Shown here one piece after another: positions 36,671 to 58,800 of a stretch of 64,000 bases of DNA (position 1 is its first letter; each line of letters begins with the position of its first letter). The translations under genes and the position numbers were made by a program. Source of the stretch: a virus. The notes below the pieces were generated by a model that worked only from the letters and a program-made list of their open reading frames with translations, was not told the DNA's origin and searched no databases. The DNA is taken from positions 32,001-96,000 of IMG/VR virus record IMGVR_UViG_3300042908_000680, one strand, 5' to 3'.

Positions 36671-36682
36671 TGGAGGATCAAG

Positions 36683-39429: not shown

Positions 39430-39437
39430 GTTAAAAT

Positions 39438-39944: not shown

Positions 39945-39951
39945 GTGACTT

Positions 39952-40434
39952 ATGCCAGTAAATGTGCCAGAGAGCGTTTTTGCCAAATACTATGACGTAA
40001 TAGATTCTACCTTCGATATTTTTGGCGTAATGTGTAAACTTGTATCTACCAATAGAATAGAAGAAACTGTATATAGTCCAAGTAATAATATTCCAGAAAA
40101 AAATTCTATAAATGTTCATCGTCTAAATAACACAAACTATGAGCGTAGTAATAAAATTATAAGAGAAGTAGAAGTATTTACAGAAATTAAATTAAAAGTA
40201 TACTGGAATCCAAAAGAGTGGATTAATGTGGCTGGCGATATACAAGTCCCAAATAATGTTATACAGACTATTGGCTTTATGAAAGACTTACCACAAATAC
40301 TAAAAGCCAAAGCACTCATAGTACATAAGGACATACAGGACTATAAAGAAATGAGATTTGAGAGAATGGGAGAACATATACCAATGGGTCTTAGGCAAAA
40401 TAGATATTTTTCATGCCTTTGGAATAGAACATGA
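39952..40434 (+). CDS. head closure / head-tail joining protein
   Basis: Position and size; beta-rich. Confidence 0.5.
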   Translation: MPVNVPESVFAKYYDVIDSTFDIFGVMCKLVSTNRIEETVYSPSNNIPEKNSINVHRLNNTNYERSNKIIREVEVFTEIKLKVYWNPKEWINVAGDIQVPNNVIQTIGFMKDLPQILKAKALIVHKDIQDYKEMRFERMGEHIPMGLRQNRYFSCLWNRT

Positions 40435-41069: not shown

Positions 41070-42040
41070 TGAATTATCTAAATCTTAAAGGATTTAATAG
41101 CGTATTTGATAGTACGTTAAATAATGAACTACAAGATAATATAGTTGAATTTTTGGAATGGTCGCTATTGGAAAAAGGGAACTACATGAATGTATCTCTT
41201 GGCGAACTTTCTCCAGAGGGTGTAGATTATAGTAAACTTAGAATATCCTCCAATTCCTCTTTTCCTAGCGGCAAGGCTTGGGAAAGTTTTAGACAAAACT
41301 GGGTCTGGCAAAGCGGGATTTCTTACACTCCATCGCCAGTTGTTGGAAATAATAACTCAATTCCCGGTATTTCTGGAGTTTATGTAAATAATACATTTTA
41401 CCCATCCAACACAAGTGGCACATATGCCCATAAAGTAGACTATTTTAATGGTAGAATTATCTTTAATAATCCCATTCCTACATCTAGTACCGTAAAAGCC
41501 GAGTATAGTTATAGATACATCAATATAGTGTATGCTAATAGCCTTCCTTGGCTGGCTGAAGTTCAGTACTCATCATTAGATATAGACACTGATTTTAATA
41601 CCTTAAATAAAGGTAAATATGACCTTCCAACAGAAGCTAGAATCCAATTACCAGCAATAGCCATAGAAATAGTTCCCCGGCGTACAATGAAAGGATATCA
41701 GCTTGGCGGTGGTCAATTTGTTGAAACAGACGTACTTTTCCACTGTTTAGCAGAGGACGAATACACTAGAAATAAATTAGTAGATATTATTTCTCTACAA
41801 AATGAGAAGACTATATACATGTTCAATAGTAATGATATAGCTAGAAGTGGTGCATTTCCCCTAGATTATCGTGGATTTCCTGTTTCTGGAGCTTTGAGAT
41901 ATCCAGAATTAGTAGATCAATACTATCGTGGAAGCTTGAGGTTAAAAAATTCTAATGTTCAAAATATGAAGCTAGTAAATAGCAATTTCTATGCTGGTAT
42001 TGTAAGGATGACCCTTGAGACAATTGAAACTTCGATATAA
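41069..42040 (+). CDS. tail terminator-like protein with inserted beta domain
   Basis: QLPAIAIE...GYQLGGG...FHCLAEDEYTRNKLVDII; VDYFNGRIIF insert; precedes the tail tube. Confidence 0.55.
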   Translation: MNYLNLKGFNSVFDSTLNNELQDNIVEFLEWSLLEKGNYMNVSLGELSPEGVDYSKLRISSNSSFPSGKAWESFRQNWVWQSGISYTPSPVVGNNNSIPGISGVYVNNTFYPSNTSGTYAHKVDYFNGRIIFNNPIPTSSTVKAEYSYRYINIVYANSLPWLAEVQYSSLDIDTDFNTLNKGKYDLPTEARIQLPAIAIEIVPRRTMKGYQLGGGQFVETDVLFHCLAEDEYTRNKLVDIISLQNEKTIYMFNSNDIARSGAFPLDYRGFPVSGALRYPELVDQYYRGSLRLKNSNVQNMKLVNSNFYAGIVRMTLETIETSI

Positions 42041-42045
42041 ATTTA

Positions 42046-42055
42046 GTGTATAAGT
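42046..42055 (+). promoter_or_regulatory. putative late promoter GTGTATAAGT
   Basis: Intergenic, before the tail tube gene. Confidence 0.6.
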
Positions 42056-42090
42056 AACTAGAGCTTACCATCTTAAAATAGGAGAGAATT

Positions 42091-43263
42091 ATGCCCAACA
42101 ACAGAATCTTCTACGCTTGCCAAGCAGTCGCCATTGAGCCATTACAAGCTAACCAGAGTACCGGAGCATTAGAAGTCACATCAAACGGTGTACAGGTTTT
42201 GCATGGCGTTCAAAGCGTTGGCTTAAATACAACATTCAATCTAGAACAAGTTTTCGAACTAGGTCAAATCCACATTTATGAAAATATTGAAGGTGTACCA
42301 GATGTTGAAGTTACATTGGAAAAAGTCCTTGATGGATTTCCATTAATGTATCACCTTGCTACATGTGGTGTAGAAAATGAAACTGGCAGTGCCAGTAAGC
42401 AATCCTTAGTAGCAAGATCAAAGCAAAGATGTAATGTATATTTAGGTATTTTCCCAGATACTGTTGAGCATATTGCTGACGCTGCTGCTAACGCAACCGC
42501 AGAAGTTCAGATGAGTGGTATGTATGTTAGTAGCTTAAGCTATACTCTTCCAACTGACGGTAACTGCACAGAATCTCTTACACTAGTTGGAAATCACAAG
42601 GCTTGGAATACTAGCAAATTTACAAGCGCGGTTGCTGCTCAGTTAGATTGGACCGGAGCGGTTGGAAATCTTGACAAACCAAAGAATTTACAAGCTGGAA
42701 CTACTTATGGTGGTATTCAAAGAAGAGAGAATGTAGATATTAAAAATTCAATTTTTCCAAAAGGTATCTATGGTGTTGCTAATAATGCAAACGCACAAAA
42801 TGCTTGGAATTCTTCTCAATCAAAACCAAATGTCCACTTTCAAAATATATCAATTAGCACAGATTTAAGTAGAGAAGATATCCAAGAATTAGGTAGAAAA
42901 GCTCCATACTATAGGTTTGCTAGTTTTCCAGTAGAAGTAACCTGTGAATTCGAAGTTATTGCTATTTCTGGAGATTTCGTTAATGCTTATGAAGAAGGTG
43001 CATTTGGAGTAAATAATGAGAATTATGGGAATAATACTTCAGAAGAAACCATCATGATCAAATTGCACGATGGAACAGTATTCGACTTAGGTACAAAGAG
43101 TAGATTAGCCTCTGTTAATTATACCGGTGGTGACGCTGGCGGTGGTAATGGAACTATAACTTATAGTTATTCAACTTACAATAGTCTTACCGTTACTCAT
43201 CCTTCAGATTTAATATCTAGTAAGAATAATCCAACTTATGCGCCATCTTATAATGGTACTTGA
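42091..43263 (+). CDS. major tail tube protein
   Basis: Position, strong RBS, two tube-like Q(S/N)...ELG segments. Confidence 0.75.
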   Translation: MPNNRIFYACQAVAIEPLQANQSTGALEVTSNGVQVLHGVQSVGLNTTFNLEQVFELGQIHIYENIEGVPDVEVTLEKVLDGFPLMYHLATCGVENETGSASKQSLVARSKQRCNVYLGIFPDTVEHIADAAANATAEVQMSGMYVSSLSYTLPTDGNCTESLTLVGNHKAWNTSKFTSAVAAQLDWTGAVGNLDKPKNLQAGTTYGGIQRRENVDIKNSIFPKGIYGVANNANAQNAWNSSQSKPNVHFQNISISTDLSREDIQELGRKAPYYRFASFPVEVTCEFEVIAISGDFVNAYEEGAFGVNNENYGNNTSEETIMIKLHDGTVFDLGTKSRLASVNYTGGDAGGGNGTITYSYSTYNSLTVTHPSDLISSKNNPTYAPSYNGT

Positions 43264-43310
43264 TACATAAATTAGCTGATTATTAGGACTCAAAAGGAAA
43301 CAAAATAAAT

Positions 43311-43360
43311 GCTCCCGCTTGTGAGATGTCTATATGAAGCATCATGAGCGGGAGTTTTTT
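43311..43360 (+). terminator. terminator-like hairpin overlapping the start of the next gene
   Basis: GCTCCCGCTTGTGA pairs with TCATGAGCGGGAGT, followed by a T tract. Confidence 0.65.
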
Positions 43361-44377
43361 ATTTCTATGATAAGATCTGGAAAAGTATTTGTAAACCACA
43401 AGGACATAGAATTAGAAATATGCCCGTTAACACTTGATCAATCTTTTAAATCTTGTTTAATATATAAAGAGGCTTATGATAAGGCTTATTCTGAAGAAAT
43501 AATGACAGAAGAGGATATGGATCAATGGATGATGGAAAATGAACTATGGACTATGCATGATAATAAAAGGGAGGAAGGATTTAAAAAAGATATTGAGAGA
43601 TTAAAAGTAGAAATCTATAATGCTAGAGATAATGAAGCATTAGCTAATAGTATAAGAAAATATATACGTGCTGGTGAGTCACAATTAACAGCGCACTTAA
43701 ATAAAAAGTATATATATCATCAAAATACATGCGAGGGTGTTGCTTCTGCCGAAAGGCTAGCTTGGATAGTAAAAAACACGACATACTTCAATGGTAAGCT
43801 CTATGATTTTGAAGAATTGTCGTTGCAATACGTTGTAGATGAATGGCAATCTCACTTTATACCAGAAAATAAATCTAGAGAATTAGCCAGAAATGATCCT
43901 TGGAAATCTTTATGGATAACTAGAGAAAATTCTGGATCTTCTCTATTTGCTAATCCCCAAAATACAGAATTAACATATAATCAAAAAAATCTCTTAGTTT
44001 GGTCACAAATGTATGATAATATTCAAGAATCTATGGAGTGTCCAAATAAAGAAGTTATAGAAGATGATGACATGCTAGACGGATGGTTCATAGTTCAACA
44101 TGAAAAACGAGAAAAAGATAGAATAGCAAAAGAATTTGAGAATGATACTCAAAATGAAAAGATAAAAAATGCATCAGAAGTATTTATAGTTTCTAATGAC
44201 AACAAAAAAATAAATAAAATTCACGATATGAATGATCAATTTGGTAAGGCAATTAAAAAACAAAGAGATACAGTAATTCAGAAAAAAGGATATGTAAACG
44301 ATCATGACTTACCAGATCAAAGACGTAATATAGAAATGATGGCTACTAATCAAATGAGAGGAAAAATGGGAGGATAA
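43334..44377 (+). CDS. tail assembly chaperone (paralog 1)
   Basis: Between tube and TMP; similar to ORF 44729; start may instead be ATG 43367. Confidence 0.6.
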   Translation: MKHHEREFFISMIRSGKVFVNHKDIELEICPLTLDQSFKSCLIYKEAYDKAYSEEIMTEEDMDQWMMENELWTMHDNKREEGFKKDIERLKVEIYNARDNEALANSIRKYIRAGESQLTAHLNKKYIYHQNTCEGVASAERLAWIVKNTTYFNGKLYDFEELSLQYVVDEWQSHFIPENKSRELARNDPWKSLWITRENSGSSLFANPQNTELTYNQKNLLVWSQMYDNIQESMECPNKEVIEDDDMLDGWFIVQHEKREKDRIAKEFENDTQNEKIKNASEVFIVSNDNKKINKIHDMNDQFGKAIKKQRDTVIQKKGYVNDHDLPDQRRNIEMMATNQMRGKMGG

Positions 44378-44380
44378 AAT

Positions 44381-44713
44381 ATGGAACCAGACTATAAGAA
44401 GACAAGAGAATCAAAATATAAAGCTGATTCAAGAGATAGGTTATCTAAGATTCTCAAAAAGAAAATACAAACTACTATGATTGGTGCTTTAAGCACACTA
44501 GAAGAAAACTTTAGTTTTTTGTGGACTAACGAATCTGGAAGCCCGTTGACAAAAGACCAAGAAGTAATGAAAAGTCTATATAATAAAGTTAGGTCGGAAA
44601 TACTTGACCGAGGAAACAATCAAGCACGAAATATTGATGCAGAATTAGCTCAATATGAAATTGAGTGGACAAGATATCAGATGAAGATACCCGTAATTAA
44701 CCCTAATAACTAA
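44381..44713 (+). CDS. hypothetical helical protein
   Basis: 110 aa, RBS GGAGG. Confidence 0.7.
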   Translation: MEPDYKKTRESKYKADSRDRLSKILKKKIQTTMIGALSTLEENFSFLWTNESGSPLTKDQEVMKSLYNKVRSEILDRGNNQARNIDAELAQYEIEWTRYQMKIPVINPNN

Positions 44714-44728
44714 TAATTGGAGGAAACC

Positions 44729-45607
44729 ATGTCGCAGGATAAGGAAAAGATCGTTGATGTAAAGATTACTAAGGACGGAAAAGAAGAAACTGTAAAGATT
44801 GTAGTCAAACGCCCCAGTAGTTCATTAATTTCTTCGGCTCAAAGAGTCGGAGCAAAGGCTTGGACCGATTGTGTTCGTGATGGGATTATGACAAAAAAGG
44901 AACTTGAAAAGTTCATGAAAGAGCAAGGTATTTGGGATGAAGGTAGAGATGAAGAGCAGAAAAAAGTGATTCAAGAGATTTCAAATCTTGAAAGAAAGCT
45001 CTATGTTAGTGGTAGTGGTGGCAAAAAGCTCAAGGCTTCTGAGGGCAAGAATATTGCTATTCAGATGAGAATTAAGAGAAATGAGCTTAGAGACTTGATT
45101 GCCGAGAAAATGAGTCTTGAGCAAAACACCGCAGAATCCATCTCTGATAACGTAAGATTTGACTATCTTGTGGCTCATTCTGCTTTTTATCAAAATGGAC
45201 AGAAAGTGTATAATGATCTAGATGACTATAAGGAAAGATCAGACGATCAGATCGCTTTTAGTGCAGCTTCTAGTCTAGCTTCTATGATGTATTCTGTAGA
45301 TAAGGATTTTGAGGCCAAACTACCAGAAAATAAATTCCTTAAAATGTTCCACTTTGTGGATGATAATCTAAGTTTGGTGAATGATAAGGGCGAAACCGTA
45401 GATACAGATGGGCGAAAAATAGATAATCAAGGATATTGGCTCAATGATCAAGGTCAAAGAGTAGATAAAGATGGCAATGTTCTTGACGAAAATGGCAACT
45501 ATATTCCCACCGTCACATACGTGGACGATGAGGACAAAGAAGTAAAAGCCGAAGAAACAGAAAAACCCACTAAGAAAAAGAAGTCAACAGCAACGGATAG
45601 TGAATGA
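44729..45607 (+). CDS. tail assembly chaperone (paralog 2)
   Basis: GGAGG then ATG 44729; immediately upstream of TMP; DxxG 7-aa repeats near the C-terminus. Confidence 0.6.
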   Translation: MSQDKEKIVDVKITKDGKEETVKIVVKRPSSSLISSAQRVGAKAWTDCVRDGIMTKKELEKFMKEQGIWDEGRDEEQKKVIQEISNLERKLYVSGSGGKKLKASEGKNIAIQMRIKRNELRDLIAEKMSLEQNTAESISDNVRFDYLVAHSAFYQNGQKVYNDLDDYKERSDDQIAFSAASSLASMMYSVDKDFEAKLPENKFLKMFHFVDDNLSLVNDKGETVDTDGRKIDNQGYWLNDQGQRVDKDGNVLDENGNYIPTVTYVDDEDKEVKAEETEKPTKKKKSTATDSE

Positions 45608-45640: not shown

Positions 45641-48600
45641 ATGTCCAAATTCGTACTGACCGCACAATTACAGCTACAAGCCCCGAATAATGTTAAGCAA
45701 GTTGTACAACAAATACAAAGCCAGTTAAATGGCGTTAGTGTTAACATACAAGTCCAGAATGCTGGACAAGCCCAAAAACAAATTCAGCAAGTAGCTCAAG
45801 CAACTAATCAAGCAACGTCAGCAGCAGAACGCATGGGTAAAGCATTTGCTCTATCCATTAGGCGTTTTGCTGCCTTTTCTATTGCCACAAGAGCGGTCGG
45901 TTTATTCACTAGTACTCTTAGTGATGCTGTTCAAACATCCATTGACTTTGAGAGACAATTAATCAAAGTCTCTCAGGTCACTGGAAAAAGTTTGACTCAG
46001 CTTCGTGGACTAACTAAGCAGATTACTGATTTGTCTACCGGTTTTGGTGTTGCGTCTTCTGATTTACTTAATGTTTCTACCATCTTAGCCCAAGCCGGTT
46101 TAAGTGCTGAAGATACAGCCATAGCTTTAAGGACTTTAGCAAAGTCTGCACTAGCTCCAAACTTTGATAGTATAACAGAAACAGCCGAAGGTGCTATTGC
46201 TGTTCTAGCTCAATTTCAAGAAGGAGTTGGATCATTAGAAAAGCAATTAGGTTCTATTAATGCTGTTGCTGGCGCATTCGCCGTTGAAGCCGGTGACTTA
46301 ATCGACGTTATTCGTAGAACGGGCGGTGTGTTCAAAGCATCTGGTGGTGATCTTAATGAACTTCTTGCATTATTTACTAGCGTAAGAGCCACAACCCGAG
46401 AAAGTGCTGAAAGTATTGGTACTGGCTTACGTACTATTTTCACACGTATTCAGCGACCCAAGACTATTGAGTTCTTAAAACAATTTGGTGTTGAACTTGT
46501 AGACTTAGATGGTAAGTTCGTTGGCCCATACGAAGCTGTTAAGAGACTAAGCGAAGCGTTAGCTGGACTTGGTGAAGGTGATACTACTTTCATTAGAATT
46601 GCAGAAGAGCTTGGTGGATTCAGACAGATTGGTAAAGTTCTTCCACTTTTACAGCAATTTTCTACTGCTCAATCCGCGCTTAATGTTGCAATGAAAGCGG
46701 GCGATTCTTTAACTCAAGATGCTGCATCTTCACAAGCAGCACTTGCGATTAGAATTATGAAAGTTAAAGAAGAATTCCTTGCGTTAATTCGTAGCATAAC
46801 TGAAACTTCTACTTTCCAAGTAATGGCAAATACAGCATTGTCATTAGCTTCAGCGTTAATCAAAATCGGAGATTCTATCAAGCCCCTATTACCAATGCTT
46901 GCTGCTTTAACAGCATTTAAACTAGTAAAGGGTATGGGTAGTTTCTTTGGTGGTATGATGAGCGGTGCTGCTTCTGGACGAACTTATAATAAGGGTGGTA
47001 AAGTTCTTGGGTTTGCTAGAGGTGGTTTAGTTCCCGGTACTGGGAACGGAGATACTGTTCCTGCGATGTTAGCTCCCGGTGAATTTGTTATACGCAAAAG
47101 TAGCGTCAACAAGATGGGTGCTGGAAGACTAGCAGCAATGAATGAAAATCGATATGCATATGGCGGTAAGGCTAGAACATTTGGTATAGCAGCACTAGAT
47201 GGAACACAAGATAGTAAATCTGCTAACCTTCCCATTTCAGCTATACGCGAAAAACTTGGAATTAATACTGACAAAGCTGGTAACAAAAATCTTGATATGG
47301 TTATACGCGGAGTTTTGGGATCCAAAGGATCAGATTTAAATGTTACAGCTAAATCAGATACTGTGACATTAAATGATCCCGGCATCAAAGACGATATATA
47401 TAATAATATTAAAAGTCAAATGTATGGATTAATAACTAGTTCAGCTACAGCTTTAAGTAATGGGACCGGAATCCCTATGAGAAAGCGACCAATTAATCCT
47501 AACAAAGTTCTTGCTAAAGTTGGAACGGATTCTACTATCGGTAGTGTTTTTGAGGGAGCATTAGGGCTATTAGGAGGACCATTTTCTGCTGGAAAATCTA
47601 CTGCTGCCATTGATTATCCAAGAGGTCTTGGGAAAATGGCTTCCGCATTTTCATCATTAGCTAATATGCCGGTAGATGCTAAAAAAACAGCAGACTCTAA
47701 AAAAACTAGTGAGATGTTAAATAAAAAAATTCCTAACTTTTTTGCAGAGTTTGTTAAACGTTCTCCACAATATGCAAGTTTTAAAAGTCAACTAAGCCAA
47801 GGTAAATTAGATAAGCTGAAGGGTAGAGAATTTGATTTAACGGAATACCAAAGGGTAACTGGAAACTCAAAAGCTACACTGTCTGATCTTAGCGGGGTTG
47901 CTAGCCTTTCTCGCAAGTCTGGACAAAGACAACTTTTTAGACTTGCTGAAAAGTTTGCAGAAGGCGGTGAAGTATTAGAAAGAGGAACACAAAAATATTT
48001 AATCTCCGACGTTGTTAAGGGGATGAGAGAATTACAGGGCAATTCAGCATTAAGCGAGAAAGACGCTATTGCTTTATTTAACTCCAAAGATGCCCGTGGT
48101 GATTTTATTTATACTAATTTTGGTGGCAAGGGAAGTATAAAACTTCCTAAGTGGATGGGAACTTATAGGCCACAATCCGCAGCTTATGGGGCATTTCAAG
48201 TAGCCCAAGCTAATAAGCAAAATAGAATAGCTGGTGCTATGAGTAGACAGGGCAAAACTATGCGAGATTATGAATCTCGCCGTGAATTTGCAACTGGTGG
48301 TGGAGTTGGTACTGATACCGTTCCCGCATTATTAACTCCTGGCGAGTTTGTTGTTAATCGTAAGTCTGCACAGCGTATTGGTTACGGTGCGTTAGGTAGA
48401 ATGAACAAGGTGGGCAAATATGCCAAGGGTGGAGTGGTTGGTCCACAAAGATTATTTGTTGGTGGAGTTGCTGAAAAACAAGTTAGTAGAGATGTTGGAT
48501 TTAGAGAAATTGACAGTATAAATGATGCAGCAAAAGTGATGGCTGAAACACTGGAGGGACTTGGCCCAGAGATCAAAAAAGCTATATTAGATAAATTTAA

Positions 48601-51600
48601 AGGTATAGAAGCAGTCACTGGTGGCGGTAAAACTTCTCTTGGTACAAAATTTAAGGATACAACCAGAGGCCAAGCTATAGTTTCATCTAGTGGTGCTAGT
48701 GCTATGGGGTTGCAGATCAAGGGTAAAAACGTTGCCGCTAATACTAACACCGTAGCCCATGAAACTGGACATTTAGCCGATTCAGCATTAGCTGATAAAA
48801 AGGGTTTTGCCAGTACGAATAAAGGTACTTTTCAATTTGATCTTGTTGAAAAGGTTAAACCTCAAATGGAAGCAGCATTTAAAGCTGCTGGGATGAGTGC
48901 AAAACAAATAGAAACATACTTAGCAAGTAATCAAGAGTTATTTGCAGAGTTTTTTGCTAAAGCATCTCCAGAAGTAAGAGCTATTATTACATCTACAACT
49001 GATTCTAAAGTTGGAATGCAAAAACTAGCAGATCATCTAGAAAAAGCTGGTCATACTTATGCTGGATTAGAAGCTTCTGATATAACTGGCATAAAACCAG
49101 TTCCAACACCGACTCCAGTTACACCTCCTAAAAAACCAACTGGACCATCAAGCCCGCCATCCGGTGGACCACCAAGCAAACCTCCATCTGGCGGTGGCAC
49201 TCCATCAAAAACATCATCATCGACTGTAGCAACATCTAGCTCAAGCGGTGGTGGTGGCGGCGGCATGTTTAATGACGTTGGCGCAAATATTGCTATGGTC
49301 AGTGCTGCACTATCAACCATGTTACCCCCACTTGATGAAAACGCTGGAGCTTTAACAAAAGTTGGGCATTCATTACTCACATTAGGAACTACTGTTGGTG
49401 GGGTGATTTTTACATTAGGGCAATTTGGAATACAACTCAAAGCTGCTAACATTGCATCTTTCGCAAAGTCATTGACAACAATGGGTAAAGGTGGATTGGG
49501 TGAAATGATAGGTGGATTTACTAGACAGGGTGGCAAAACTAGTAGAGCCGCTGGTGAAAGTGTTACACAAGCTTTTGGAATTGGTAAACAAAGAGATGCA
49601 GTTGCTCAAGCTAGGTCAGAAAGAGCATCGCAATTATTAGAACTACGAGGTCAACGTAATTCACTAAGAGGACAAACTGGCTTCAAGGCATTTAGCGAAA
49701 GGGCAGATGTAACTCAAAAAATAAAAGGGCTTGCTCAAGCTCCAAGTAAACTACCCGGCTTACCCAATTCTTTGACCGGAAAATTAGGAAACTTCCTTGG
49801 ACAAAAAGCAGCTGGTGGTGGTCTAGGCGGAAGATTAGCTGGCATGGCTGGAAATGCTATTACCAAAGTAGGTGGCCTTGGAACTGGTGCTGTTGGGGGT
49901 GCTGTGGGCGGTGCTATGGGTACTGCTGCTGCTATGGCTGGTCCAGCTTTAGCAGTGGTAGGAGCAGTTGCTGCTATTAATAGTGTAATTGGTAGCTTTA
50001 GAGACTTAGATGACAAACTAAAAAGCTCTATCGAAGCCGGTAAAGTAGAAGAAGCTTCTAGACTAGCAGTAGCACAAAAAGCATCAGAATTTCCTCTTAT
50101 TGGTAATATTGTTAGTTCTATCTTTGGAGAGAGCGGTGATGCATTTCTACTAGGTATTGGCGAACTTTTTGGTGGTCCAAGTCTAGATAGCGTTAAACAA
50201 TTAGCTGCTGCTCAAGCCGGTGCTGCCAAAACAACTAAATCATTAGAAGAAGCTCAAAAAGTTGCTTCTGATGCTATGAATGATTTCAAGAATGGTAGTA
50301 TAAGTGCTGCTGACGCTCTTGCCAAAATAAGAGCTAAAACTGGTGAAGCCTCCAATCAACAAAAGCGAGCATCTAGTTTTGTTGCCACCAATTTAGAGCA
50401 AAGGGGAGGTATTTCAAGAGATATCTTTACTCTTGGTGGATTACTTGGTGAAACATCTACGGCTAGGAATAAAAGATTAGGCGCACAAAATGTTGAACAA
50501 ATTAATCAATCGTCTAAATTCATGGCCGATGCGTTCAATACAGAATCAGAAGCTCGTCAGGCCACTATTAGATCTGGAGTAGCTAGAGGTAAAAATTCTG
50601 AAGAAATTCGTACAACAGCTATGGGAAATCTAAGAAGTCAAAGAGAAGAAGCCCTTAAGACAGCAAAAGCTGCCGCTAAATCTGGAGATACTGCAACATA
50701 CGATGCTGCAATTGCACAAGCAGAACAATTGCGTCAAAGTATGGAACAGGTTGATAAAGAAATTGCAAACATTGAAAAAGAAGTTAAGCGTCAAAAAGAA
50801 TTGTATGACGCTATGAATCTTGGTTTACGTTCTGCAACCGCAACCGCTACGGCACTATCAGCCAGCATGGATAAGTTTTCATCTGGATTAGAGGTGGGTG
50901 GATCTTCATTCGTAAATGATGTTGAATTTTTACAATCAGCAATGAGTAGTGCTGCACAAGCTATGGATTCTGGTGAAATTCAGAGTGCTATAAAGGGAGT
51001 GTCTGATAATCTTAGAGAGTTTGGATCTTCTGAAAAATATATTCAAAAATTTGAAGGAAATGTTGCCGCGTTTACTCAAGCTCAGTCTAATTATACTCAA
51101 GCGTTTGCTAATATCAAGAAGTCAATGAAAGATGCAGACTTTAAGAATTTGAACGCTGACGAACTAAAGAAAAGGTTTGCCGATGAATTAACTAAGGGTA
51201 TGGGTGACGGTGAAGCAAAAGACAGCTTAAAGAAAGTCATCAATGGATTAGAATTAGAACCGGGTGATGTAGATAAAATACTTGCTGGAGATTTAAGCGT
51301 CTTTGGAGACAAGCTTACTGAATCTCAACAAAAAATGCTTGAACCCATAATGAAAATTTCTCAAGAAAGGGCAAAAGCAGAACAAGTATTAATTGACTTT
51401 ACTAAGAAGAGAATTGATTCTGAGAGAAATCTTGTAGCAGCACAGCAAGAAGCCCTTGATCTTGTGATGGAAGGTAGAGAACTTCAAGGTAAGTATGGTG
51501 GTCAAGCTGTTACGGGTAGGGAAAGAAAAGATAACTTGTTAGCCAAGTCTAATGTAGAAAGCAGTAGACTAGGATTAACAAATATGAAGAGTGGTGATGT

Positions 51601-52834
51601 TGGAGATTTAAGAAGAAGAAATGCTGAGATTATGGCAGGATTCTCCAATATAGAAGCTAGAAGAAGTCAACAGGGTGGTATGAAGGGTAGATCTGGAGTT
51701 GAAGCAGATGAAGCTCAGAAGGATCTACAGAAAGCATATAAAACACAGATTGATACCATTAGAGGTTTAATCAAACTAGAAGAAGAACAACTCAAGATCA
51801 CCCAAGAAAAGAATAAGCTTGAGAAGGATTCTATGGAATCTCTTGTTAAGGGAGATATAGAAGACTTTTTCAAGAAGCAATCTGCTGTTGGTGCTACCGC
51901 TGCTATAGCAAGTGGCGATACTAGATTACAGAACCTTTACGGCGGTGACGCTCTTGGGGCAGCACTCCAAGATATTCAACGTCAACAAGAAGCCGGGGTT
52001 CAAAGTTTATATGGTCAGCAATTAGCTGGTTCTGGCGGTTTGACAGAAGCTGCCGCTAATGCCGCTTTATCATCTAGGGGCGTAACAGATATGAGAGCCG
52101 CCCAAGTCATGGCAGGAACTACAGCAGAAGAAGAAGCCAGCAAAGCCAGACTTCGTGAACTAGGCGGAATGCTAGGTGAAACTGGCAATATGGGAACTCA
52201 AATGGCTGAAATGCAAGTTGAAACAGCAACTATTAATGTAAATAGTGCTGATTTGAAGTTTAAGGAAGTTATGGCCAAGGGTAATAAAGCTGCGGCTGAA
52301 GCCCAAGCAGTAGAAGACCAAAGAGCAATGGCAAGGGGTGGCATGGTATATGCAAGTCGTGGTATTTTTGTACCTCGCGGAACTGACACTATCCCAGCAA
52401 TGTTAACTCCCGGTGAATTCGTAGTAAATAGGGGTGCAGTCCAGCGTGGTAACAATTTACAAATATTAAAAGCGATGAATAGTGGGCTTGGAAGTGTATC
52501 TAGTAGTGGTGGCACAGCCCTCATGGCAAGTGGTGGCGTGGTTAGATATAGAGATCGCGGTAGTTATGGTCCAGAACAGCAAAGTCAAGGAATGTCAAAC
52601 TTTGCTACCGCCCTTGAGAATTTCAATAGAGAACTATCTAGAAATGTTGAGTCTTTAAAGGACAGCAAGATAACTATTAAGTTAGATTCTACTAATGTAA
52701 ATATTAATCTAAACGATGGTGGTTTACTAAAGTCTTTGAAAGCTCAAGTGGCACAAGAGATTTTCAACCTTGTTAAAACTAGACTAGTTGTTGGTGATGG
52801 CGGAAGACTAAGGGAAAATTCGGGAGTAGTATGA
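45641..52834 (+). CDS. tape measure protein with embedded enzyme-like domains
   Basis: TP901-type N-terminus (FERQLIKVSQVTG, ESAESIGTGLRTIFTRI); long helical region; three DT(V/I)PA(M/L)LxPGEFV motifs; HETGH. Confidence 0.92.
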   Translation: MSKFVLTAQLQLQAPNNVKQVVQQIQSQLNGVSVNIQVQNAGQAQKQIQQVAQATNQATSAAERMGKAFALSIRRFAAFSIATRAVGLFTSTLSDAVQTSIDFERQLIKVSQVTGKSLTQLRGLTKQITDLSTGFGVASSDLLNVSTILAQAGLSAEDTAIALRTLAKSALAPNFDSITETAEGAIAVLAQFQEGVGSLEKQLGSINAVAGAFAVEAGDLIDVIRRTGGVFKASGGDLNELLALFTSVRATTRESAESIGTGLRTIFTRIQRPKTIEFLKQFGVELVDLDGKFVGPYEAVKRLSEALAGLGEGDTTFIRIAEELGGFRQIGKVLPLLQQFSTAQSALNVAMKAGDSLTQDAASSQAALAIRIMKVKEEFLALIRSITETSTFQVMANTALSLASALIKIGDSIKPLLPMLAALTAFKLVKGMGSFFGGMMSGAASGRTYNKGGKVLGFARGGLVPGTGNGDTVPAMLAPGEFVIRKSSVNKMGAGRLAAMNENRYAYGGKARTFGIAALDGTQDSKSANLPISAIREKLGINTDKAGNKNLDMVIRGVLGSKGSDLNVTAKSDTVTLNDPGIKDDIYNNIKSQMYGLITSSATALSNGTGIPMRKRPINPNKVLAKVGTDSTIGSVFEGALGLLGGPFSAGKSTAAIDYPRGLGKMASAFSSLANMPVDAKKTADSKKTSEMLNKKIPNFFAEFVKRSPQYASFKSQLSQGKLDKLKGREFDLTEYQRVTGNSKATLSDLSGVASLSRKSGQRQLFRLAEKFAEGGEVLERGTQKYLISDVVKGMRELQGNSALSEKDAIALFNSKDARGDFIYTNFGGKGSIKLPKWMGTYRPQSAAYGAFQVAQANKQNRIAGAMSRQGKTMRDYESRREFATGGGVGTDTVPALLTPGEFVVNRKSAQRIGYGALGRMNKVGKYAKGGVVGPQRLFVGGVAEKQVSRDVGFREIDSINDAAKVMAETLEGLGPEIKKAILDKFKGIEAVTGGGKTSLGTKFKDTTRGQAIVSSSGASAMGLQIKGKNVAANTNTVAHETGHLADSALADKKGFASTNKGTFQFDLVEKVKPQMEAAFKAAGMSAKQIETYLASNQELFAEFFAKASPEVRAIITSTTDSKVGMQKLADHLEKAGHTYAGLEASDITGIKPVPTPTPVTPPKKPTGPSSPPSGGPPSKPPSGGGTPSKTSSSTVATSSSSGGGGGGMFNDVGANIAMVSAALSTMLPPLDENAGALTKVGHSLLTLGTTVGGVIFTLGQFGIQLKAANIASFAKSLTTMGKGGLGEMIGGFTRQGGKTSRAAGESVTQAFGIGKQRDAVAQARSERASQLLELRGQRNSLRGQTGFKAFSERADVTQKIKGLAQAPSKLPGLPNSLTGKLGNFLGQKAAGGGLGGRLAGMAGNAITKVGGLGTGAVGGAVGGAMGTAAAMAGPALAVVGAVAAINSVIGSFRDLDDKLKSSIEAGKVEEASRLAVAQKASEFPLIGNIVSSIFGESGDAFLLGIGELFGGPSLDSVKQLAAAQAGAAKTTKSLEEAQKVASDAMNDFKNGSISAADALAKIRAKTGEASNQQKRASSFVATNLEQRGGISRDIFTLGGLLGETSTARNKRLGAQNVEQINQSSKFMADAFNTESEARQATIRSGVARGKNSEEIRTTAMGNLRSQREEALKTAKAAAKSGDTATYDAAIAQAEQLRQSMEQVDKEIANIEKEVKRQKELYDAMNLGLRSATATATALSASMDKFSSGLEVGGSSFVNDVEFLQSAMSSAAQAMDSGEIQSAIKGVSDNLREFGSSEKYIQKFEGNVAAFTQAQSNYTQAFANIKKSMKDADFKNLNADELKKRFADELTKGMGDGEAKDSLKKVINGLELEPGDVDKILAGDLSVFGDKLTESQQKMLEPIMKISQERAKAEQVLIDFTKKRIDSERNLVAAQQEALDLVMEGRELQGKYGGQAVTGRERKDNLLAKSNVESSRLGLTNMKSGDVGDLRRRNAEIMAGFSNIEARRSQQGGMKGRSGVEADEAQKDLQKAYKTQIDTIRGLIKLEEEQLKITQEKNKLEKDSMESLVKGDIEDFFKKQSAVGATAAIASGDTRLQNLYGGDALGAALQDIQRQQEAGVQSLYGQQLAGSGGLTEAAANAALSSRGVTDMRAAQVMAGTTAEEEASKARLRELGGMLGETGNMGTQMAEMQVETATINVNSADLKFKEVMAKGNKAAAEAQAVEDQRAMARGGMVYASRGIFVPRGTDTIPAMLTPGEFVVNRGAVQRGNNLQILKAMNSGLGSVSSSGGTALMASGGVVRYRDRGSYGPEQQSQGMSNFATALENFNRELSRNVESLKDSKITIKLDSTNVNINLNDGGLLKSLKAQVAQEIFNLVKTRLVVGDGGRLRENSGVV

Positions 52835-55800
52835 GTTCTTTACTTTGCAATACAAACGATAAAACTAGACTAGGTGCTAATAGTCGCCTCTTAGCAACTT
52901 TATCTTTTAACCATGGTCTTTCTTCTAGACCCTCTTCTATTGCAACTATAAGATTGCAAGAAGGTGTTTATAGAAATCTAAAGACTTCCTTTATTGGCAT
53001 TTCTAAGTTGCTAGCTAATGAAAATGTAAACTGCTCACCCAAAGAAGATTTTTCTGAATGTGGTGCTGGTAATATTAGGGGATATACAACCGCAAACCTT
53101 GGTATTAATTCAAGAATATCTTCTTCTGGAAAATTTAAAAGTTCTTATACAGATAAGTTTGCTGGATATAAGCCCAGCTTTAGAGCTTATGAAAAGCTAT
53201 ACCCAATTCAAGATTTATCTTTCAAAAGTAAAATTACTAATACTAACATAAATGTCTACAAAGTTGAAAATAATGCACCTAGCCCCACCAATATATATAC
53301 TAGTATTGACGAGGGTGTTTTTACTGGTGATTATGTGCAGGATGGAAAAACCGGATCGATTATATCAGATGAATCAAAATCATTTGCTCTTACTTTTAGA
53401 ATTTTTGCTTCTGGTGATATTCAGTATAAGTTTCGCGTTGCAAAGCCAGTATCAGTTGCTAAACTAAGCTATCTCGCTATTAGGGCATCAGCACCATTTG
53501 ATAATTATATACAAAAAAAACCACAACAGTATAAAATATATGATATAAAGTTTGAAGATCCTAGTGGTAATTTAATAATTCAATATGAAGATATGTTCAT
53601 CCGTGGCGATACTTACTATACTACCTATTTATCTAAACCGTTAGTTAATAATCTATTGCTACCAACTTGGGATAGCAAATATCCATTAATGGATGCTGCC
53701 GGTTCTTATAGTATTACTTTAAATATATCATACGATTGTAATACTTATCCATTTACCAGCAATTTTGATCCCGGTTACGAGCAAACATGTATAATTAATT
53801 CAACTAATCTAAGCCCCAATCCGTTCATTAGTTTGAATATGTCCGCTCTTGAGATTGGAAATAGCGGTGGAGTTGGCATCCTTCGTGATAGTTATCTAAA
53901 CTTTTATTCTAAAGTAAGAGATAAGTCTGAGCGAGAAAAGAGAACACTACTTCCAACTGAGTTATTGACATATAGTTTTAATAATGGAATTTACCCACAA
54001 GCCAGTAGCGTTTGGCGTTCAACTACAAATAATATAAACTATGATAACACTGCATCTTCTGGTGCTTCTCATTTACTAAATAAAATTAGAAATGATTTAA
54101 CTGGAGACTATATTACTGTAATAAACTCTTCACCAGTTTCAGACAGTGGAAGAATAGTATTAAAGTTCAACACAAAGCCCGATAAAGAAGCATATGACAA
54201 TTATATAGATGGGGCATTTGCTTTTGGTGGCAGTAAAGAGTTTAATGATGCCAAACTAGTAAATTACTTAGATAATGATAATTTCTTTGACATAGAGAGC
54301 TTAGAACTAAAAGTAATTGCTAAAAAAGCTACTGGCACTCCAGACTATACAATAGATGTTGTTGGATATAGTGATGACAAATTATTGAATGTTACACCAG
54401 CAATTGGTGGATTCTTGCAAAATAGCGGGGCTTTAGTTTTTGATACTAATTCAGTGCCAGATATTTCTGGATATAACTATAAGACATTTGGTATTTCTGA
54501 TAGTAGCCTTTCAGATCAATCCGAGTACTTCCAGAAAGACGCTTCACCCAACGGTGATCACTATATACTTAATAACGCACCGTTAGTAAATAGTACATCA
54601 TTCCAAGAGTATATTATACCATTAGATATTTATCAAAATCCTTATGATCTTGGATATAAAAAATATTCTATTAGTTCTCTTTTTGAAAATCTATATTTAG
54701 ATATTTGCCCTATTCCTAGCGGAGCATCTATTTGTAGTGTTAAACTAGTTGTATATTATAAGCCAGCTAATGCTCTTGCAATGCATACCCTTGGTAGCCC
54801 AGTAGATAAGAGTGCTGTACGAAAAAGTATTACACTTTTACCATCATCCAACGAGAACGGAACGCAGGTAAATACTAACGTAAAACTTAGTGGCATATTG
54901 ACAGGATTGACAACCCCAGAATATATAAAATCTAATTATTCCAGAAGATGGAGAGGTAATGATGGTAGGATTTTATCTGGTGGAGATTTTATGCCAGAGG
55001 CTTTTGATTTTTCTTTCAATCATAAACAAGCAATAAATCCATTCCTAACATCATACATAGATTTTAAGAATGTGGATGGGGATAATATTCTATCATCAAG
55101 CGGTACTGTTGTAGGTCAAGCAGATCAATATTTTAATATTTTATCTAATTTTGGATGGAGATATTCTTCTAATCAGCTTTTTACTCTTACTCCAACTCCA
55201 TATAAATCCATATCTTGGAGAAATAATGTATTTGATGCATTTGATAGGGCGGCTAGAATTTCTTCAGATGATAGATTAATTATTAATACATTAAATAATG
55301 ATTCATTTACTAATTATGGAAATATATCTAAAAGTTTTGGTTTTGCTTTATTTATTAGATTTACTCCAGATCAATCATCTGATTCATTAATAAACAATAA
55401 TCTTATTTTTTCATATGAAAATTCTACTACTTGGTCAATGGTGTTCATATGCGAAAATGGCATTCTAAAACTAAAAATTAAAAATGCTGATAACAGTGTC
55501 ACTACACTCAGCGACACCAGAAGTATACTGGAGTATCAATTCCCTTTTTCTGTATTAATTACTTATAATGATGATAATACATATAAATTTAAATTATACA
55601 CAGATAACGAATTATTCAGTTTATTTAATAACTTAAGGGCGGTTTCACCCCCACAAACCTCTTTGAAACTATTGAGCAACCCATCTTTATATATTGGTTA
55701 TTCATCTACTTACTCGGGACTTTCATCTCTACCAATGTTTTTACATGAAGTGGGGATATCTAATGGTAGATGTAATATAGCAGAATATATTAATGAAAAT

Positions 55801-58800
55801 ATACTATCAAATCAAACAACAGCATCAAATGTCTTTTCTTCTCATAGAATGCATTTTAATAGCCTATCTTCCAAAAATATAAGATCAAATCAATACACTT
55901 ATGTTGATGATGACATTTCGCTATGGCATCTTGGAGATTTCAAAGTATGTCAATTTTCTCCAGACTTTGATTTTTTTACTCAAAGGCATGGAATAGATTT
56001 TTTAAGTTTTGACTTAAAACATCATGGTTCTGGATATAGTCAAGCTACTAATTTACCATTACCATCTAATATTAATATTTCTGGTGTAGCATATCACACT
56101 CAACTAGAAAATGATTTTTTAAGATTCAATCTATCTAATATTCCCACCATTGATAAAGATAGATTTTATGCCGTTGCCCCTAGAATATCTAAAACATTAC
56201 CAAGGGGTTATAAATTTAATCAAGATGCCATTTATGTTGATACTATTGTAGAGCATGAAACAAATGATAGTATGATATGGTCAAACGGAAAGATCGGCCC
56301 CAAGCTAATTGTTAGTTTATACGCTAAGACTCAAGACAGTGCCGACAGACCAAGCAAATCATTTGGTTTAATAAATAGGTCAACTCATTATCTAGAACCA
56401 TCTGGATGTATACGAAAACTTACTAGTAAATTTTCTTTTGAAGATTTATTAGATGACTCAGAACCTTGGGCTTTATTTGATAAAGAATCATACCTCAAAG
56501 AATTTAAAGAAAAATATTTTTCTCAAGATATAGATGATATGTTCTTGCAATATGATTTAGTATATCCATCTGGAAGACCATTCTCCTCACTAATTAAATT
56601 GCATAGTTCAAATGTTCGACTAGATGATGCTATATATATTAGCGAAAAATCAAATAGTCAGCTAAATCTAATTACAAGTGGACAAAAATATCAACTTGCA
56701 AATCTAAACTTATTTGCTCCAGAAAATGGTCCAATAATTAATTCTTATGCTAATCTTTTTGTAAGTGGAGTTGGTCCATCTAGACAACAGGTAAGTTTTT
56801 ATATTAATAGCAGTGGTTATCCATGCGATAGCCCATATTTAAATATGTATACTTTTACTGTTGGCTCTGCTACTACAGAAGATCAAGTTTTTGGTGGTAT
56901 GTTTGGCTCATCTCCAGTAAAGGGGTTAGGATTATCTGTTAGTGGTCAATTTATGACAGAAACTAGTATGCCCTTATTTACATATGGATCTGGATACTAT
57001 TCTGAATCATATGTTAATTTAAGTACTCTAGTAGAAGATGATATCGTTAAAAATGAATATATAAACTTGGCTATTCGTGGAATATCTAAGTCTCAAGATT
57101 TTTACCCATATTCTAGTATGCCATTATATGTCTATGGACAAGAATTCTCAACTGAAATAAATAATTACGCCCCGTTATTCGTGTTGAGCGATGATCTTAG
57201 TAGAGTTGTAGATTCTGGATCTCTAAACTTACATACTTTAAATTATCCAATATCTGATTCTCTCGCCAATAGCAGTGCCTCTATTAGATGGACCAATAAC
57301 AATGTTGGTAAAAACATAACAGTTCAAGATAACAGCTATGCTTATGTTGATTCAGATGATAACATTCGCGGCGTTGATTTATTATGTTATGGAACTTGCT
57401 CATCTAATAATAGATGTTCAGAAGCAGTAGTAGATATTCACGGGGTTAAGTGGTATGAACCAGAAGTTTGTGTTGACGGAGGAATATTCCGAGCCAAGTC
57501 TACATATACAAATCTAACATATCCAAGCGGATCATTCAGACACACCATTAGCCAAAATGAAGCAACAAATATACTCACAGAAAATTTATTTGTACTTTCT
57601 ACTGAAAATAATGATTTCATGTCTACGGAGTCATCTCTAAATTCAGTTGTTTATGATATTATGCCATATAGTGGTCATTTCTATGGCATTAGAAAATATA
57701 CTGGATTGGCCCCCAATCTTCCATATGCCATTAATATAACTGGCAAGTCGGGATCAACAGATGCTATAGACATACCAACAGAAATTGTTGAAGTAGAATA
57801 TAATAAAAATGAAACTAATCTAACATCAACAGATTATAGTGGATTTAGGTTACTATCTAGTGGCACTAAAACTGCTGGAGATGAGTTTGGAAAATCTATT
57901 GCGTCTAAAGATAATTTATTAGCGATAGGATCACCAAAAAGATCAATAGTATATAATAGTGGCGTTGGGTCAAATCTAACACTACAAGAGGCTGGGACCG
58001 TATTCGTATATAGAAGACAAGAAAGACCTAGTGGATATAATTGGCCTTTAGATAATTATAAGTCTCCTTGGATACTGGAAACCGCCCTAACATTACCATC
58101 TGGTATGCTAAAGGATTACTATACTCAATCAGAACTAGATCTTGGTTTACCATATAACTTAAGACCAATCCAAACAAGCTGGTTTGTTGGTCAAGAAGGA
58201 AGACAATTTGGACACTCGCTAGACATTTCCGTAAATAAAAATGAAAAATCATTAGGTGAGAGTTCTCGTCAAATAATTGTTGTTGGTGGCCCAAGTGCTA
58301 AATGGACTCCTAGAGTATTTGATAATACTCCACCATCCGATGTCAATATTGGATTAATAGTTTTTACTGACGAGTTTACTCCTAGAATTCCAGCACCACT
58401 TCCTAATCAGCCCTTTAGAACTATAGGGTATGAAGAAGTTCTTGAATCTATAAAAGACAAAGACATAATATTTAATTATTTTGGTAATCCAAGAATCAAA
58501 TTTAATGTTAAACTAATGATTTGCCAGCCTATCGCAGATAGTCCAGATATTGTTTCGCCAAGTTTTCCAGATAAACCAGATTTTATGGTTTTAAATTCTA
58601 TAGGTAGAAATTCTGGATATAAACCAAATGCTGCAAAAACAGAGGCCATTGTCAGTGGTATTAAAGACGCTTTCTTTGAAGCGTTCCCATATGATAATAG
58701 TAAAATTCATAACAATATACCACCAATTATCGGTTTATATATAGATAACAGCAGTTCTTTGGGTAGAGAATCTTTAGAGCCAGCTATAGATGAATTTGTT

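Follow-up and report, generated by a model that had tools for sequence, protein, structure and literature searches.

The question raised by this locus is why a single viral gene for a tail protein should carry enzyme-like domains set between copies of a short recurring motif, and what the phage gains from that arrangement. The window, that is, the whole stretch of 64,000 nucleotides analysed here, belongs to an uncultured phage with a genome of 149.5 kb (~150 kb); all positions below are window positions and all features lie on the plus strand. The gene occupies 45641..52834 as a single ORF of 2,397 amino acids (P0001), which a first-pass annotation had taken for a tape measure protein (TMP). 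Profile searches bore this out, with matches to PF10145 (PhageMin_Tail, E 2.7e-24), to TIGR01760 (tape_meas_TP901, E 5.8e-28) and to several TMP PHROGs, and on these matches P0001 is a giant TP901-family tape measure protein. The TIGR01760 match marks the TMP core (aa 89-382; 45905..46786), conserved in 115 of 119 relatives that were chosen by similarity to the cassette- and joint-bearing region itself. The C-terminal two thirds hold two hydrophobic Gly-rich segments (aa 1213-1264 and 1421-1456, within 49277..50008; Kyte-Doolittle 19-aa windows of at least 1.3), a candidate membrane-inserting part by analogy with T5 pb2 and lambda gpH (PMC10038345, PMC12617516), and a long ruler part, mostly helical judging from the translation (aa 1457-2214; 50009..52282), whose block C is kept in about 70 of the 119 relatives. 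The tail beyond the last motif-bearing module (aa 2306-2397; 52556..52831) is expected from its position to be the tip-plug part (PMC11445458, PMC12617516).

The motif is far too frequent for chance: [FYM]AxGG occurs seven times in P0001 against 0.30 +/- 0.56 expected, none of 2,000 shuffles reaching seven. Most occurrences belong to a joint module of about 70 aa, consisting of ΦAxGG, a DTVPAMLTPGEFV hairpin that carries D-T-V-P-A-x-L-x-P-G-E-F-V, two helices and a second ΦAxGG. A module HMM placed three copies in P0001, and no others turned up when the full 149.5-kb genome was searched with a profile. Module 1 (aa 442-511; 46964..47173; genome profile E 1.9e-26) contains YNKGG (46985), FARGG (47012), GDTVPAMLAPGEFV and YAYGG (47153); module 2 (aa 865-938; 48233..48454; E 4.6e-25) contains FATGG (48287), GTDTVPALLTPGEFV, YAKGGVV (YAKGG at 48419) and LFVGG (48452); and module 3 (aa 2215-2305; 52283..52555; E 1.7e-27) contains MARGG (52328), GTDTIPAMLTPGEFV and MASGG (52523). 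One further motif, FAEGG (aa 772-776; 47954..47968), stands alone between cassettes A2 and A3. The first-pass annotation had listed these motifs at the right coordinates, as well as G(T)DT(V/I)PA(M/L)L(A/T)PGEFV at 47048, 48308 and 52379; its grouping of them under [FY]AxGG was too generous, however, for YNKGG and LFVGG, which do not fit the pattern and delimit modules 1 and 2 at their outer ends. The N-terminal third of the protein thus contains a hypervariable region bounded by two of the joints and the lone motif. AlphaFold2 with alignments gave the joints pLDDT values of 30-54 against those of the better-folded cassettes, suggesting that they are disordered on their own and hence accessible.

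Between the fences, the same models support the earlier claim of three globular cassettes (A1, A3 and B), and its further claim of enzyme domains is upheld in so far as the cassettes are folded and enzyme-like. Cassette B (aa 945-1148; 48473..49084) is predicted with pLDDT above 90 over aa ~950-1150, and the model resembles the catalytic domain of anthrax lethal factor (LF; Z 7.9, 139 aa, 3.6 A), PPEP-2 (Z 7.6) and PPEP-3 (Z 7.0) in VIA-align, almost all of the remaining 47 listed matches being zinc metallopeptidases; Foldseek returned the Zmp1/PPEP/LF group as well (prob 0.90-0.97, E about 1e-2). Its catalytic residues (H1040-E-x-x-H1044, Y1093, E1099, with D1047) include the HExxH, Tyr and Glu, which all 29 relatives compared retain even at about 40% identity, and we regard B as a confidently folded, predicted anthrax-lethal-factor/PPEP-like zincin with an intact active-site signature. 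Cassette A1, together with A2 (aa 512-770; 47174..47950), reached pLDDT 66-92 over aa ~509-750, and its G634, E638, D658 and D679-A-K681 are invariant in all 35 aligned relatives, including those that lack BLAST similarity. This E..D..DAK arrangement is PD-(D/E)xK-like, a nuclease-type signature; A1 had no match in Pfam, and fold searches matched it to no known fold and to no nuclease. Its homologues fall into 55 clusters, nearly all of them within giant TMP-sized proteins. Cassette A3 (aa 777-864; 47969..48232) is a small alpha/beta domain (pLDDT 57-84 over aa ~776-870) that an HMM detected in 41 of 120 family members and that had neither a Pfam nor a fold match. The cassettes are followed by a Pro/Ser/Gly-rich linker (aa 1150-1207; 49088..49261), the least conserved part of the coverage profile, and here too the translation agrees with the Pro-rich linker described before.

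Comparison of near-identical phages at the nucleotide level revealed where the cassettes change. The DNA of the phage encoding P0007 is 95% identical to that of P0001 over aa 1-509, stops being so at 47166/47167, directly after the YA(Y/D)GG codons, shows no similarity over aa 510-769, picks up again at aa 770 (47949) with 91% identity over aa 770-933, and is 95% identical from aa 1021 onward. With the P0003 phage, identity is 93% over aa 1-933, after which an unrelated Lys-rich stretch of about 190 aa stands in place of B; it is 89.5% over aa 1702-2303 and ends at aa 2303 (52549), in module 3. In both phages identity is lost at 48439/48440, directly after KYAKGGVV, so that the breakpoints lie within 1-2 codons of ΦAxGG(VV), at its 3' edge. 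More widely, 27 block combinations occur among the 119 relatives, modules 1 and 2 stand 144 to 1,197 aa apart, 56 of 60 relatives have the start of B no more than about 20 aa from a module end, and BLAST block ends accumulate at aa 776-778, by the lone FAEGG. Overall, a motif lies no more than 8 aa from 52% of BLAST block ends (14% expected), a contrast that overstates the case because HSP ends naturally stop at conserved islands; the strong evidence for breakpoints at the joints is that of the two DNA comparisons. Because these breakpoints fall at the motifs and the blocks occur in 27 combinations, the earlier reading of the motifs as recombination junctions is supported: the joints are sites where related phages exchange cassettes. 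The word "swappable" in the first-pass annotation applies to B, replaced by unrelated sequence in some relatives, but less well to the A1 slot, which mostly holds very divergent alleles of a single domain family.

An insert that varies so much could in principle be filler that tunes the length or assembly of the ruler, its enzyme features being relics and the motif a mere conserved linker, and TMP length does differ among close relatives (2,013-2,694 aa). We consider this highly improbable, since relics would hardly keep the catalytic residues of B and the A1 signature throughout the aligned relatives, the latter even where the rest of the domain is beyond BLAST detection, and the folded predictions and nucleotide-resolution breakpoints also disfavour a passive spacer.

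The joint itself is not peculiar to this phage. Module profiles matched lambda gpH (aa 727-786 of 853; profile match aa 731-784, E 1.6e-3), JBD30 gp46 (aa 1017-1087 of 1158, E 1.6e-4) and Douge gp16 (two matches, E 5.6e-12), and the module is also found in TMPs of Mycobacterium, Gordonia, Streptomyces, Ralstonia, Nodularia and Synechococcus phages. Among the 117 relatives with a module match, those retaining the C-terminal module have it 89-134 aa from the C-terminus, and module 3 of P0001 with its tail has the layout of lambda gpH and JBD30 gp46; module 1 follows a hydrophobic Gly-rich stretch, as the module of lambda does. In JBD30, aa 1022-1066 of gp46, within the module match, are predicted to fold as two helices plus a beta-hairpin, a "hook" that secures the TMP in the baseplate (PMC11445458), and the same secondary structure is predicted for the joints of P0001. 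The joints might accordingly dock to the tail-tip hub or the tube after tip opening, with cassettes that degrade the envelope in the periplasm or cell wall instead of acting as cytoplasmic effectors, on the models of T5 pb2C and of mycobacteriophage TMPs with their Rpf and M23 motifs. The module does stand upstream of known wall hydrolase domains in an S-SCSM1 virion protein (module aa 594-649, glucosaminidase aa 697-816) and in GMA4 (modules aa 964-1029 and 1260-1344, SLT domain aa 1598-1679), and in Imvubu an Rpf-like domain (aa 1271-1344) lies between one clear and one weak module match. The cassettes of P0001, however, have no peptidoglycan hydrolase similarity, B being like protein-cleaving M34 peptidases and A1 bearing its nuclease-type signature, and the N-terminal third, last out of the tail, is an odd site for enzymes that open the wall first. 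The published structures lack the module, as that of lambda gpH leaves out ~690-817 (PMC12617516) and that of JBD30 gp46 covers no more than its final 33 residues (PMC11445458). Taken together, docking hooks with envelope enzymes seem to us unlikely.

The explanation we favour, and which as a whole we hold to be fairly probable, is that the joint is an ancient TMP element, triplicated in this giant TMP with one copy at the canonical site about 90 aa before the C-terminus, and that the two extra copies, with the lone motif, bound exchangeable cassettes delivered as enzymes. TMPs are ejected ahead of the DNA and form a channel (PMC12617516, PMC10038345). By this route P0001 would leave the tail C-terminus first, its C-terminal two thirds, with the hydrophobic Gly-rich segments and the long helical part, forming a trans-envelope conduit, and the cassettes would travel last, adjoining the leading DNA end. 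The joints would act as flexible links that can be threaded, so that one cassette could fold or unfold without the others. About 700 aa of globular protein in three copies would hardly fit folded into a tail lumen of ~4 nm, and storage would thus be unfolded, staggered or outside the tube. By analogy with gp96 of Thermus phage P23-45, whose N-terminal RNA polymerase is a TMP-fused enzyme experimentally shown to be active in the host (PMC10770324), the cassettes would enter the envelope or cytoplasm before phage gene expression, and it is probable that the tail brings finished enzymes into the host cell.

The joints may double as cleavage sites. In its full form, this would make P0001 a true polyprotein, cut at the ΦAxGG joints, either as the tail matures or once the TMP has been ejected, so that A1, A3 and B are freed. 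The protease would come from the host or the phage, or be the embedded zincin B itself. This reading is compatible with the delivery of exchangeable cassettes, and we give it as a possibility that falls short of probable. Lambda gpH matures to gpH* and gpHC, and T5 pb2 to pb2* and pb2C (PMC12617516, PMC10038345), both being cut beside a joint or joint-like region: T5 pb2 after R1127, immediately before AEGGMMYPG...GEH (PMC10038345), and lambda gpH, given a gpHC of ~14 kDa, near aa 710-725, in a Gly-rich stretch just upstream of its module (PMC12617516). The predicted disorder of the joints, the several Pro-Pro pairs of the linker after B, whose nearest folds include Pro-Pro endopeptidases, and the proposal that LF-like zincins autoprocess polyvalent phage proteins (PMC5512222) are consistent with cleavage. 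The T5 stretch, however, was not matched by the module HMM, not even with its filters switched off, and its post hoc resemblance is one of short pattern, not of statistical homology; T5 and lambda have a single known cut each, near the C-terminus; and the P23-45 polymerase is believed to function without being released from its TMP (PMC10770324). B, moreover, cannot be the general protease of the family, because 65 of 120 members lack it and retain joints.

Among known systems, lambda gpH is like P0001 in having a joint module between a hydrophobic Gly-rich stretch and a tip-binding C-terminal tail (~70 aa in lambda), but in lambda and T5 there is a single copy, with no cassettes fenced off, whereas P0001 has three copies, a lone motif and ~640 aa of folded cassettes in its N-terminal third. 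Another is gp96 of P23-45, a TMP of 5,002 aa (PMC10770324). Its virion RNA polymerase at aa 327-1124 accompanies the DNA into the host and works ahead of phage gene expression, and gp96 has metallopeptidase and transmembrane parts as well. The cassettes of P0001 (aa 512-1148) are at the corresponding relative position; nothing like the gp96 polymerase was listed in sequence searches of Pfam and PDB, the cargo being instead a putative zincin and a nuclease-like domain, fenced by joints, of which the consulted passages of that paper make no mention, and differing between near-identical phages. The polyvalent proteins (Iyer et al. 2017, PMC5512222) likewise combine unrelated enzyme domains, highly variable in content, in one big polypeptide travelling with the invading DNA, and an LF-like zincin is their commonest hub domain and proposed polypeptide processor; these are head-packaged or T4SS-delivered, whereas in P0001 it is the tail ruler that does the carrying. 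The term "tape measure" does not appear in that study, nor do its consulted passages mention a conserved flanking joint. Mycobacteriophage TMPs can contain Rpf-like or M23 motifs (Piuri and Hatfull 2006, PMC1796659). These and other lytic-domain TMPs share with P0001 small embedded enzyme domains together with the joint module (Imvubu, GMA4 and Douge gp16, the latter two with two clear copies each), but their cargo consists of peptidoglycan hydrolases, of which none was detected in P0001, and the enzyme lies near the joints without being directly fenced. Polymorphic toxin systems exchange variable functional domains by recombination at a short conserved peptide, such as VENN in CdiA, and P0001 resembles them in this. 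The toxin domains are C-terminal and paired with immunity genes, whereas the cassettes of P0001 are internal, flanked on both sides and part of a virion protein.

The gene located at window positions 45641-52834 (+) encodes a protein of 2,397 amino acids (aa) that, as judged by its profile matches, is a member of the TP901 family of tape measure proteins (TMPs). Its scores exceeded the curated cut-offs of both PF10145 PhageMin_Tail (E = 2.7e-24; 86.6 bits against a cut-off of 33.2) and TIGR01760 tape_meas_TP901 (E = 5.8e-28; 97.9 bits against a cut-off of 28.8), which bore out the first-pass annotation of the protein as a TMP, and several TMP PHROGs also matched it. That annotation had further listed repeated (F/Y)AxGG motifs along the protein, and the coordinates it gave for them were exact in all cases. 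The pattern [FYM]AxGG occurs seven times in the TMP against an expectation of 0.30, a count that none of 2,000 shuffles reached. Rather than being scattered, the motifs represent the two ends of one module of about 70 aa (called here the joint), the family consensus of which reads roughly K-G-G, F-A-x-G-G, G-T-D-T-V-P-A-M-L-T-P-G-E-F-V, some 25 residues and then Y-A-K-G-G-V-V. Copies of the joint are found at aa 442-511, 865-938 and 2215-2305, along with an isolated FAEGG motif (aa 772), and a profile search of the whole genome detected no copy beyond these three. The module cores share 76-82% DNA identity with one another over 38 nt within the TMP gene. A literature search for the string PGEFV retrieved no paper. 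The first joint is preceded by a hydrophobic Gly-rich stretch and is followed by cassette A1 (with A2; aa 512-770) and by the small cassette A3 (aa 777-864); cassette B (aa 945-1148) lies after the second joint, and is followed in turn by a Pro/Ser/Gly linker, two hydrophobic Gly-rich stretches and the long helical part of the protein.

A search with aa 440-1160 identified at least 936 metagenomic relatives of this TMP, and the best 119 of the 936 were compared. Among these 119, conservation was high over aa 1-509, was lost between the joints, reached a peak at the second module and fell after it, and the blocks N (the N-terminal part), A1, A2, A3, B and C (the helical ruler part) were assembled in 27 combinations. 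Block ends clustered at aa 509-513, 776-778, 881-883, 933 and 1148-1150, with 52% of block ends lying no more than 8 aa from a motif against 14% expected, an excess that is inflated by the conserved islands. Of 60 relatives, 56 had B starting at most about 20 aa away from a module end, regardless of which module this was. Modules 1 and 2 were separated by 144 to 1,197 aa, and some relatives presented up to seven modules. This was the case for relatives such as P0051, P0108, P0105, P0097, P0113 and P0117, in which five to seven modules fence several slots of 150-1,300 aa and which reach up to 4,100 aa, their cassette arrays being hence longer than that of the TMP studied here. Five relatives in which the slots are long or several in number (P0025, P0016, P0051, P0108 and P0105) were searched with Pfam, which returned PhageMin_Tail alone, and phmmer searches of P0016, P0108 and P0025 against PDB sequences gave no useful match. 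The label of ADP-ribosyltransferase exoenzyme (PF03496) that the database attaches to P0025, P0069, P0096, P0099 and P0102 was not reproduced for P0025 at E <= 0.01, and no cassettes of this type are claimed here. Single-linkage clustering of the cassettes, based on tiles or on coverage, merged all of them into a single cluster and was not used further. A search for related loci that used cassette B as the only query returned none.

The first-pass annotation had proposed to compare the cassette boundaries of relatives with the AxGG motifs, and both were found to coincide, the DNA of two relatives being decisive in this respect. The phage encoding P0007 is 95% identical to the phage studied here over the DNA of aa 1-509, shows no similarity over aa 510-769 and is again 91% identical over aa 770-933 and 95% identical from aa 1021. 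The phage encoding P0003 is 93% identical over aa 1-933 and 89.5% identical over aa 1702-2303, and in place of B it has about 190 aa of unrelated, Lys-rich sequence with no HExxH. In the comparison with P0007, DNA identity breaks down no more than one or two codons past YA(Y/D)GG (window 47166/47167); past KYAKGGVV (window 48439/48440), it does so over the same distance in the comparisons with both P0003 and P0007. The role of the joints as recombination junctions is therefore supported at nucleotide resolution. The motifs had originally been interpreted as processing and recombination junctions for exchangeable effectors delivered at infection; the recombination part of this interpretation is upheld by the sharp DNA junctions at ΦAxGG, and its remaining parts are discussed below as proposals made by analogy.

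The model of cassette B was of high confidence (pLDDT > 90). Its best match in VIA-align was the catalytic domain of anthrax lethal factor (LF; Z = 7.9, 139 aa, rmsd 3.6 Å), the Pro-Pro endopeptidases PPEP-2 (Z = 7.6) and PPEP-3 (Z = 7.0) were also retrieved, and almost all of the other 47 matches listed were zinc metallopeptidases; Foldseek concurred with this result (probability 0.90-0.97, but E of only ~1e-2). LF and PPEP-1 present an HExxH motif and a downstream Glu that acts as zinc ligand, with a Tyr located a few residues before this Glu. Residues H1040, E1041, H1044, Y1093 and E1099 of B are kept in all 29 aligned relatives. We consider the zincin fold predicted for B as secure, M34 being only the nearest subfamily to the model. 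No Pfam family was assigned to B, its sole match being to Peptidase_M90 and below threshold (E = 0.037; 14 bits against a cut-off of 26.2). Because sequence models place it in no Pfam family, we label B an LF/PPEP-like zincin and not a member of M34.

Homologues of cassette A1 (pLDDT 66-92) fall into 55 clusters in a set of 1.84 billion representatives, and nearly all lie within TMP-sized proteins. Positions G634, E638, D658 and D679-A-K681 are invariant in the 35 aligned relatives (35/35), with 21 aa from D to DxK, and at the level of primary structure these residues form the classic PD-(D/E)xK pattern. The Foldseek PDB, VIA-wide and BFVD lists contained no nuclease for A1, which was searched only within a 501-aa model of cassette A; this model matched single helices only (best Z = 5.7 over 47 aa). 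No Pfam domain was found in eight short A1 homologues. Cassette A3 likewise matched neither a Pfam family nor a fold in these searches. The A1 slot of P0007 is occupied by a very divergent allele that has retained the E..DF..DAK signature, which argues for A1 being a conserved function under strong diversification; B, by contrast, is genuinely gained and lost.

The TMP gene belongs to a virus record of 149.5 kb from IMG/VR that is 94% complete, and the gene order around it is also found in relatives. Directly 5' of the TMP, in the position of tail chaperones, there are two ORFs of 110 aa (window 44381-44713, +) and 296 aa (window 44717-45607, +), the latter having a sub-threshold match to DUF3659, and a pair of 110 and 292 aa is likewise found 5' of the TMP at both loci of related phages (L008 and L009). 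Downstream, the start of a giant ORF (3,723 aa or more; window 52831-63999, +) overlaps the TMP stop via ATGA; the sole Pfam match of this ORF, near aa 3399-3423, is to an FG-GAP repeat, and its homologue in the related phage L009 has 3,735 aa. This giant ORF sits where distal-tail and tip proteins normally are. None of the tested TMP neighbours was assigned by Pfam or PHROG as tail sheath, tube or chaperone. Eleven of the 12 putative structural proteins tested at window 32484-45607 (+) had no PHROG or Pfam match at family threshold, and one gave a weak match to a tail-fibre PHROG. Megablast of the TMP gene against 50,697 phage records yielded no match, tblastn matches of the TMP to known phages were confined to the TP901 core at the N-terminus and to the short module, and phmmer of the whole TMP against PDB sequences found none. 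With no megablast match in the 50,697 phage genomes and no family assignment for the neighbouring structural genes, the phage represents a new lineage, very distant from cultured phages.

The module was found by tblastn in the TMPs of Mycobacterium, Gordonia, Streptomyces, Ralstonia and Nodularia phages and also in the virion 'lysozyme' of T4-like cyanophages. GG..D..PA.L.PGEFV..A.GG was invariant in the alignment with three of these phage proteins, and the profile built from this alignment and run against PDB sequences identified three TMPs for which tail structures have been solved: Douge gp16, where it matched two copies (E = 5.6e-12), JBD30 gp46 (E = 1.6e-4; aa 1017-1087 out of 1158) and lambda gpH (E = 1.6e-3; aa 731-784 out of 853). 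The family HMM gave 23.9 bits against gpH alone. The module is an ancient TMP element of wide distribution. In the T4-like cyanomyovirus S-SCSM1 of Synechococcus, the 'lysozyme' (L003:2192-5041, +) carries one module at aa 594-649, about 50 aa upstream of the glucosaminidase (aa 697-816), and its presence in this virion protein indicates that the joint is not confined to siphovirus rulers. In Douge gp16, JBD30 gp46 and lambda gpH the module itself is in no map, the only parts built being residues 818-849 of gpH and the C-terminal 33 residues of gp46 (PMC12617516, PMC11445458). In the JBD30 study, aa 1022-1066 of gp46 were predicted to form a 'hook', composed of two helices plus a beta-hairpin (PMC11445458). 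AlphaFold2 predicts these same elements for the joints of our TMP, but at low confidence (pLDDT 30-54), which suggests that the joint is a segment ordered only inside a complex.

Two TMPs known to be cleaved are relevant to the possible processing of the protein. In T5, pb2 (L005:12122-15781, -) is cleaved after R1127 (PMC10038345), and the sequence right after this residue, AEGGMMYPG...GEH, is joint-like. What is annotated in pb2 as a motif of the zinc-carboxypeptidase type, PGVSYQMGEHGTEVV, begins seven residues after the cut, and this stretch is similar to the core of the joint, AxGG..PG..GE[FH]. The 'peptidase motif' might be a degenerate joint; the module HMM gave no match to pb2 with all filters off, and for this reason we claim no homology between the cut site and the joint. 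In lambda, the product of gene H (L006:143-2704, +) carries the module at aa 727-786 (FHFATGG ... RGEFVF ... GYATGGYV), directly after a Gly-rich hydrophobic stretch (aa ~691-725). The size of gpHC (~14 kDa) would place the cut near aa 710-725, within the Gly-rich stretch just before the module, in a protein whose cleavage site and protease are stated to have been unknown for 50 years (PMC12617516). These parallels, and the Gly-rich stretch that precedes module 1, make cleavage at or beside the joints of this TMP plausible. Zincin B is absent from 65 of 120 family members and cannot therefore be the general protease. In a broader scenario, which we regard as rather improbable, the ΦAxGG joint would be a general determinant of TMP maturation and cleavage (gpH to gpH* + gpHC; pb2 to pb2* + pb2C), and giant TMPs like this one would be polyproteins processed at each joint, perhaps by their own LF-like zincin, so that a changeable set of free effectors, nucleases and proteases, would enter the host before the DNA.

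TMPs are usually viewed as rulers and channel formers, sometimes with a wall hydrolase. In a large family, represented by at least 936 metagenomic proteins in one search, the ruler serves as a chassis for folded, enzyme-like cassettes, which are swapped between phages otherwise 93-95% identical. Exchange at a short conserved joint, resolved to the nucleotide, provides a rule for cassette boundaries in any TMP, and the same joint beside the cut region of lambda gpH makes FATGG and its surroundings a concrete target for the old cleavage question. If the cassettes are delivered, they would constitute a novel reservoir of anti-host or anti-defence enzymes acting in the first minute, and they would also be natural places at which to engineer cargo into phage tails.

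TMPs exit the tail ahead of the DNA and form its conduit (PMC12617516, PMC10038345). In phage P23-45, the N-terminal region of the TMP gp96 (aa 327-1124) is a virion RNA polymerase responsible for transcribing the pre-early genes inside the host (PMC10770324), and this polymerase occupies the same relative position as the cassettes described here. By this analogy, it is reasonable to propose that the cassettes are delivered to the host as effectors. The module is also found upstream of wall hydrolases in other virion proteins, and a periplasmic role for the cassettes is hence conceivable. In the polyvalent proteins described by Iyer et al. 2017, which accompany phage or plasmid DNA, no domain is more common than the LF-like zincin; the term 'tape measure' is absent from that paper (PMC5512222). 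The combination of zincin B and nuclease-like A1 in one polypeptide matches these polyvalent proteins by prediction, with entry together with the DNA being inferred from TMP biology alone. Enzyme-carrying TMPs and polyvalent proteins are kinds already known in the literature searched, and the TMP analyzed in this work is a variation on both.
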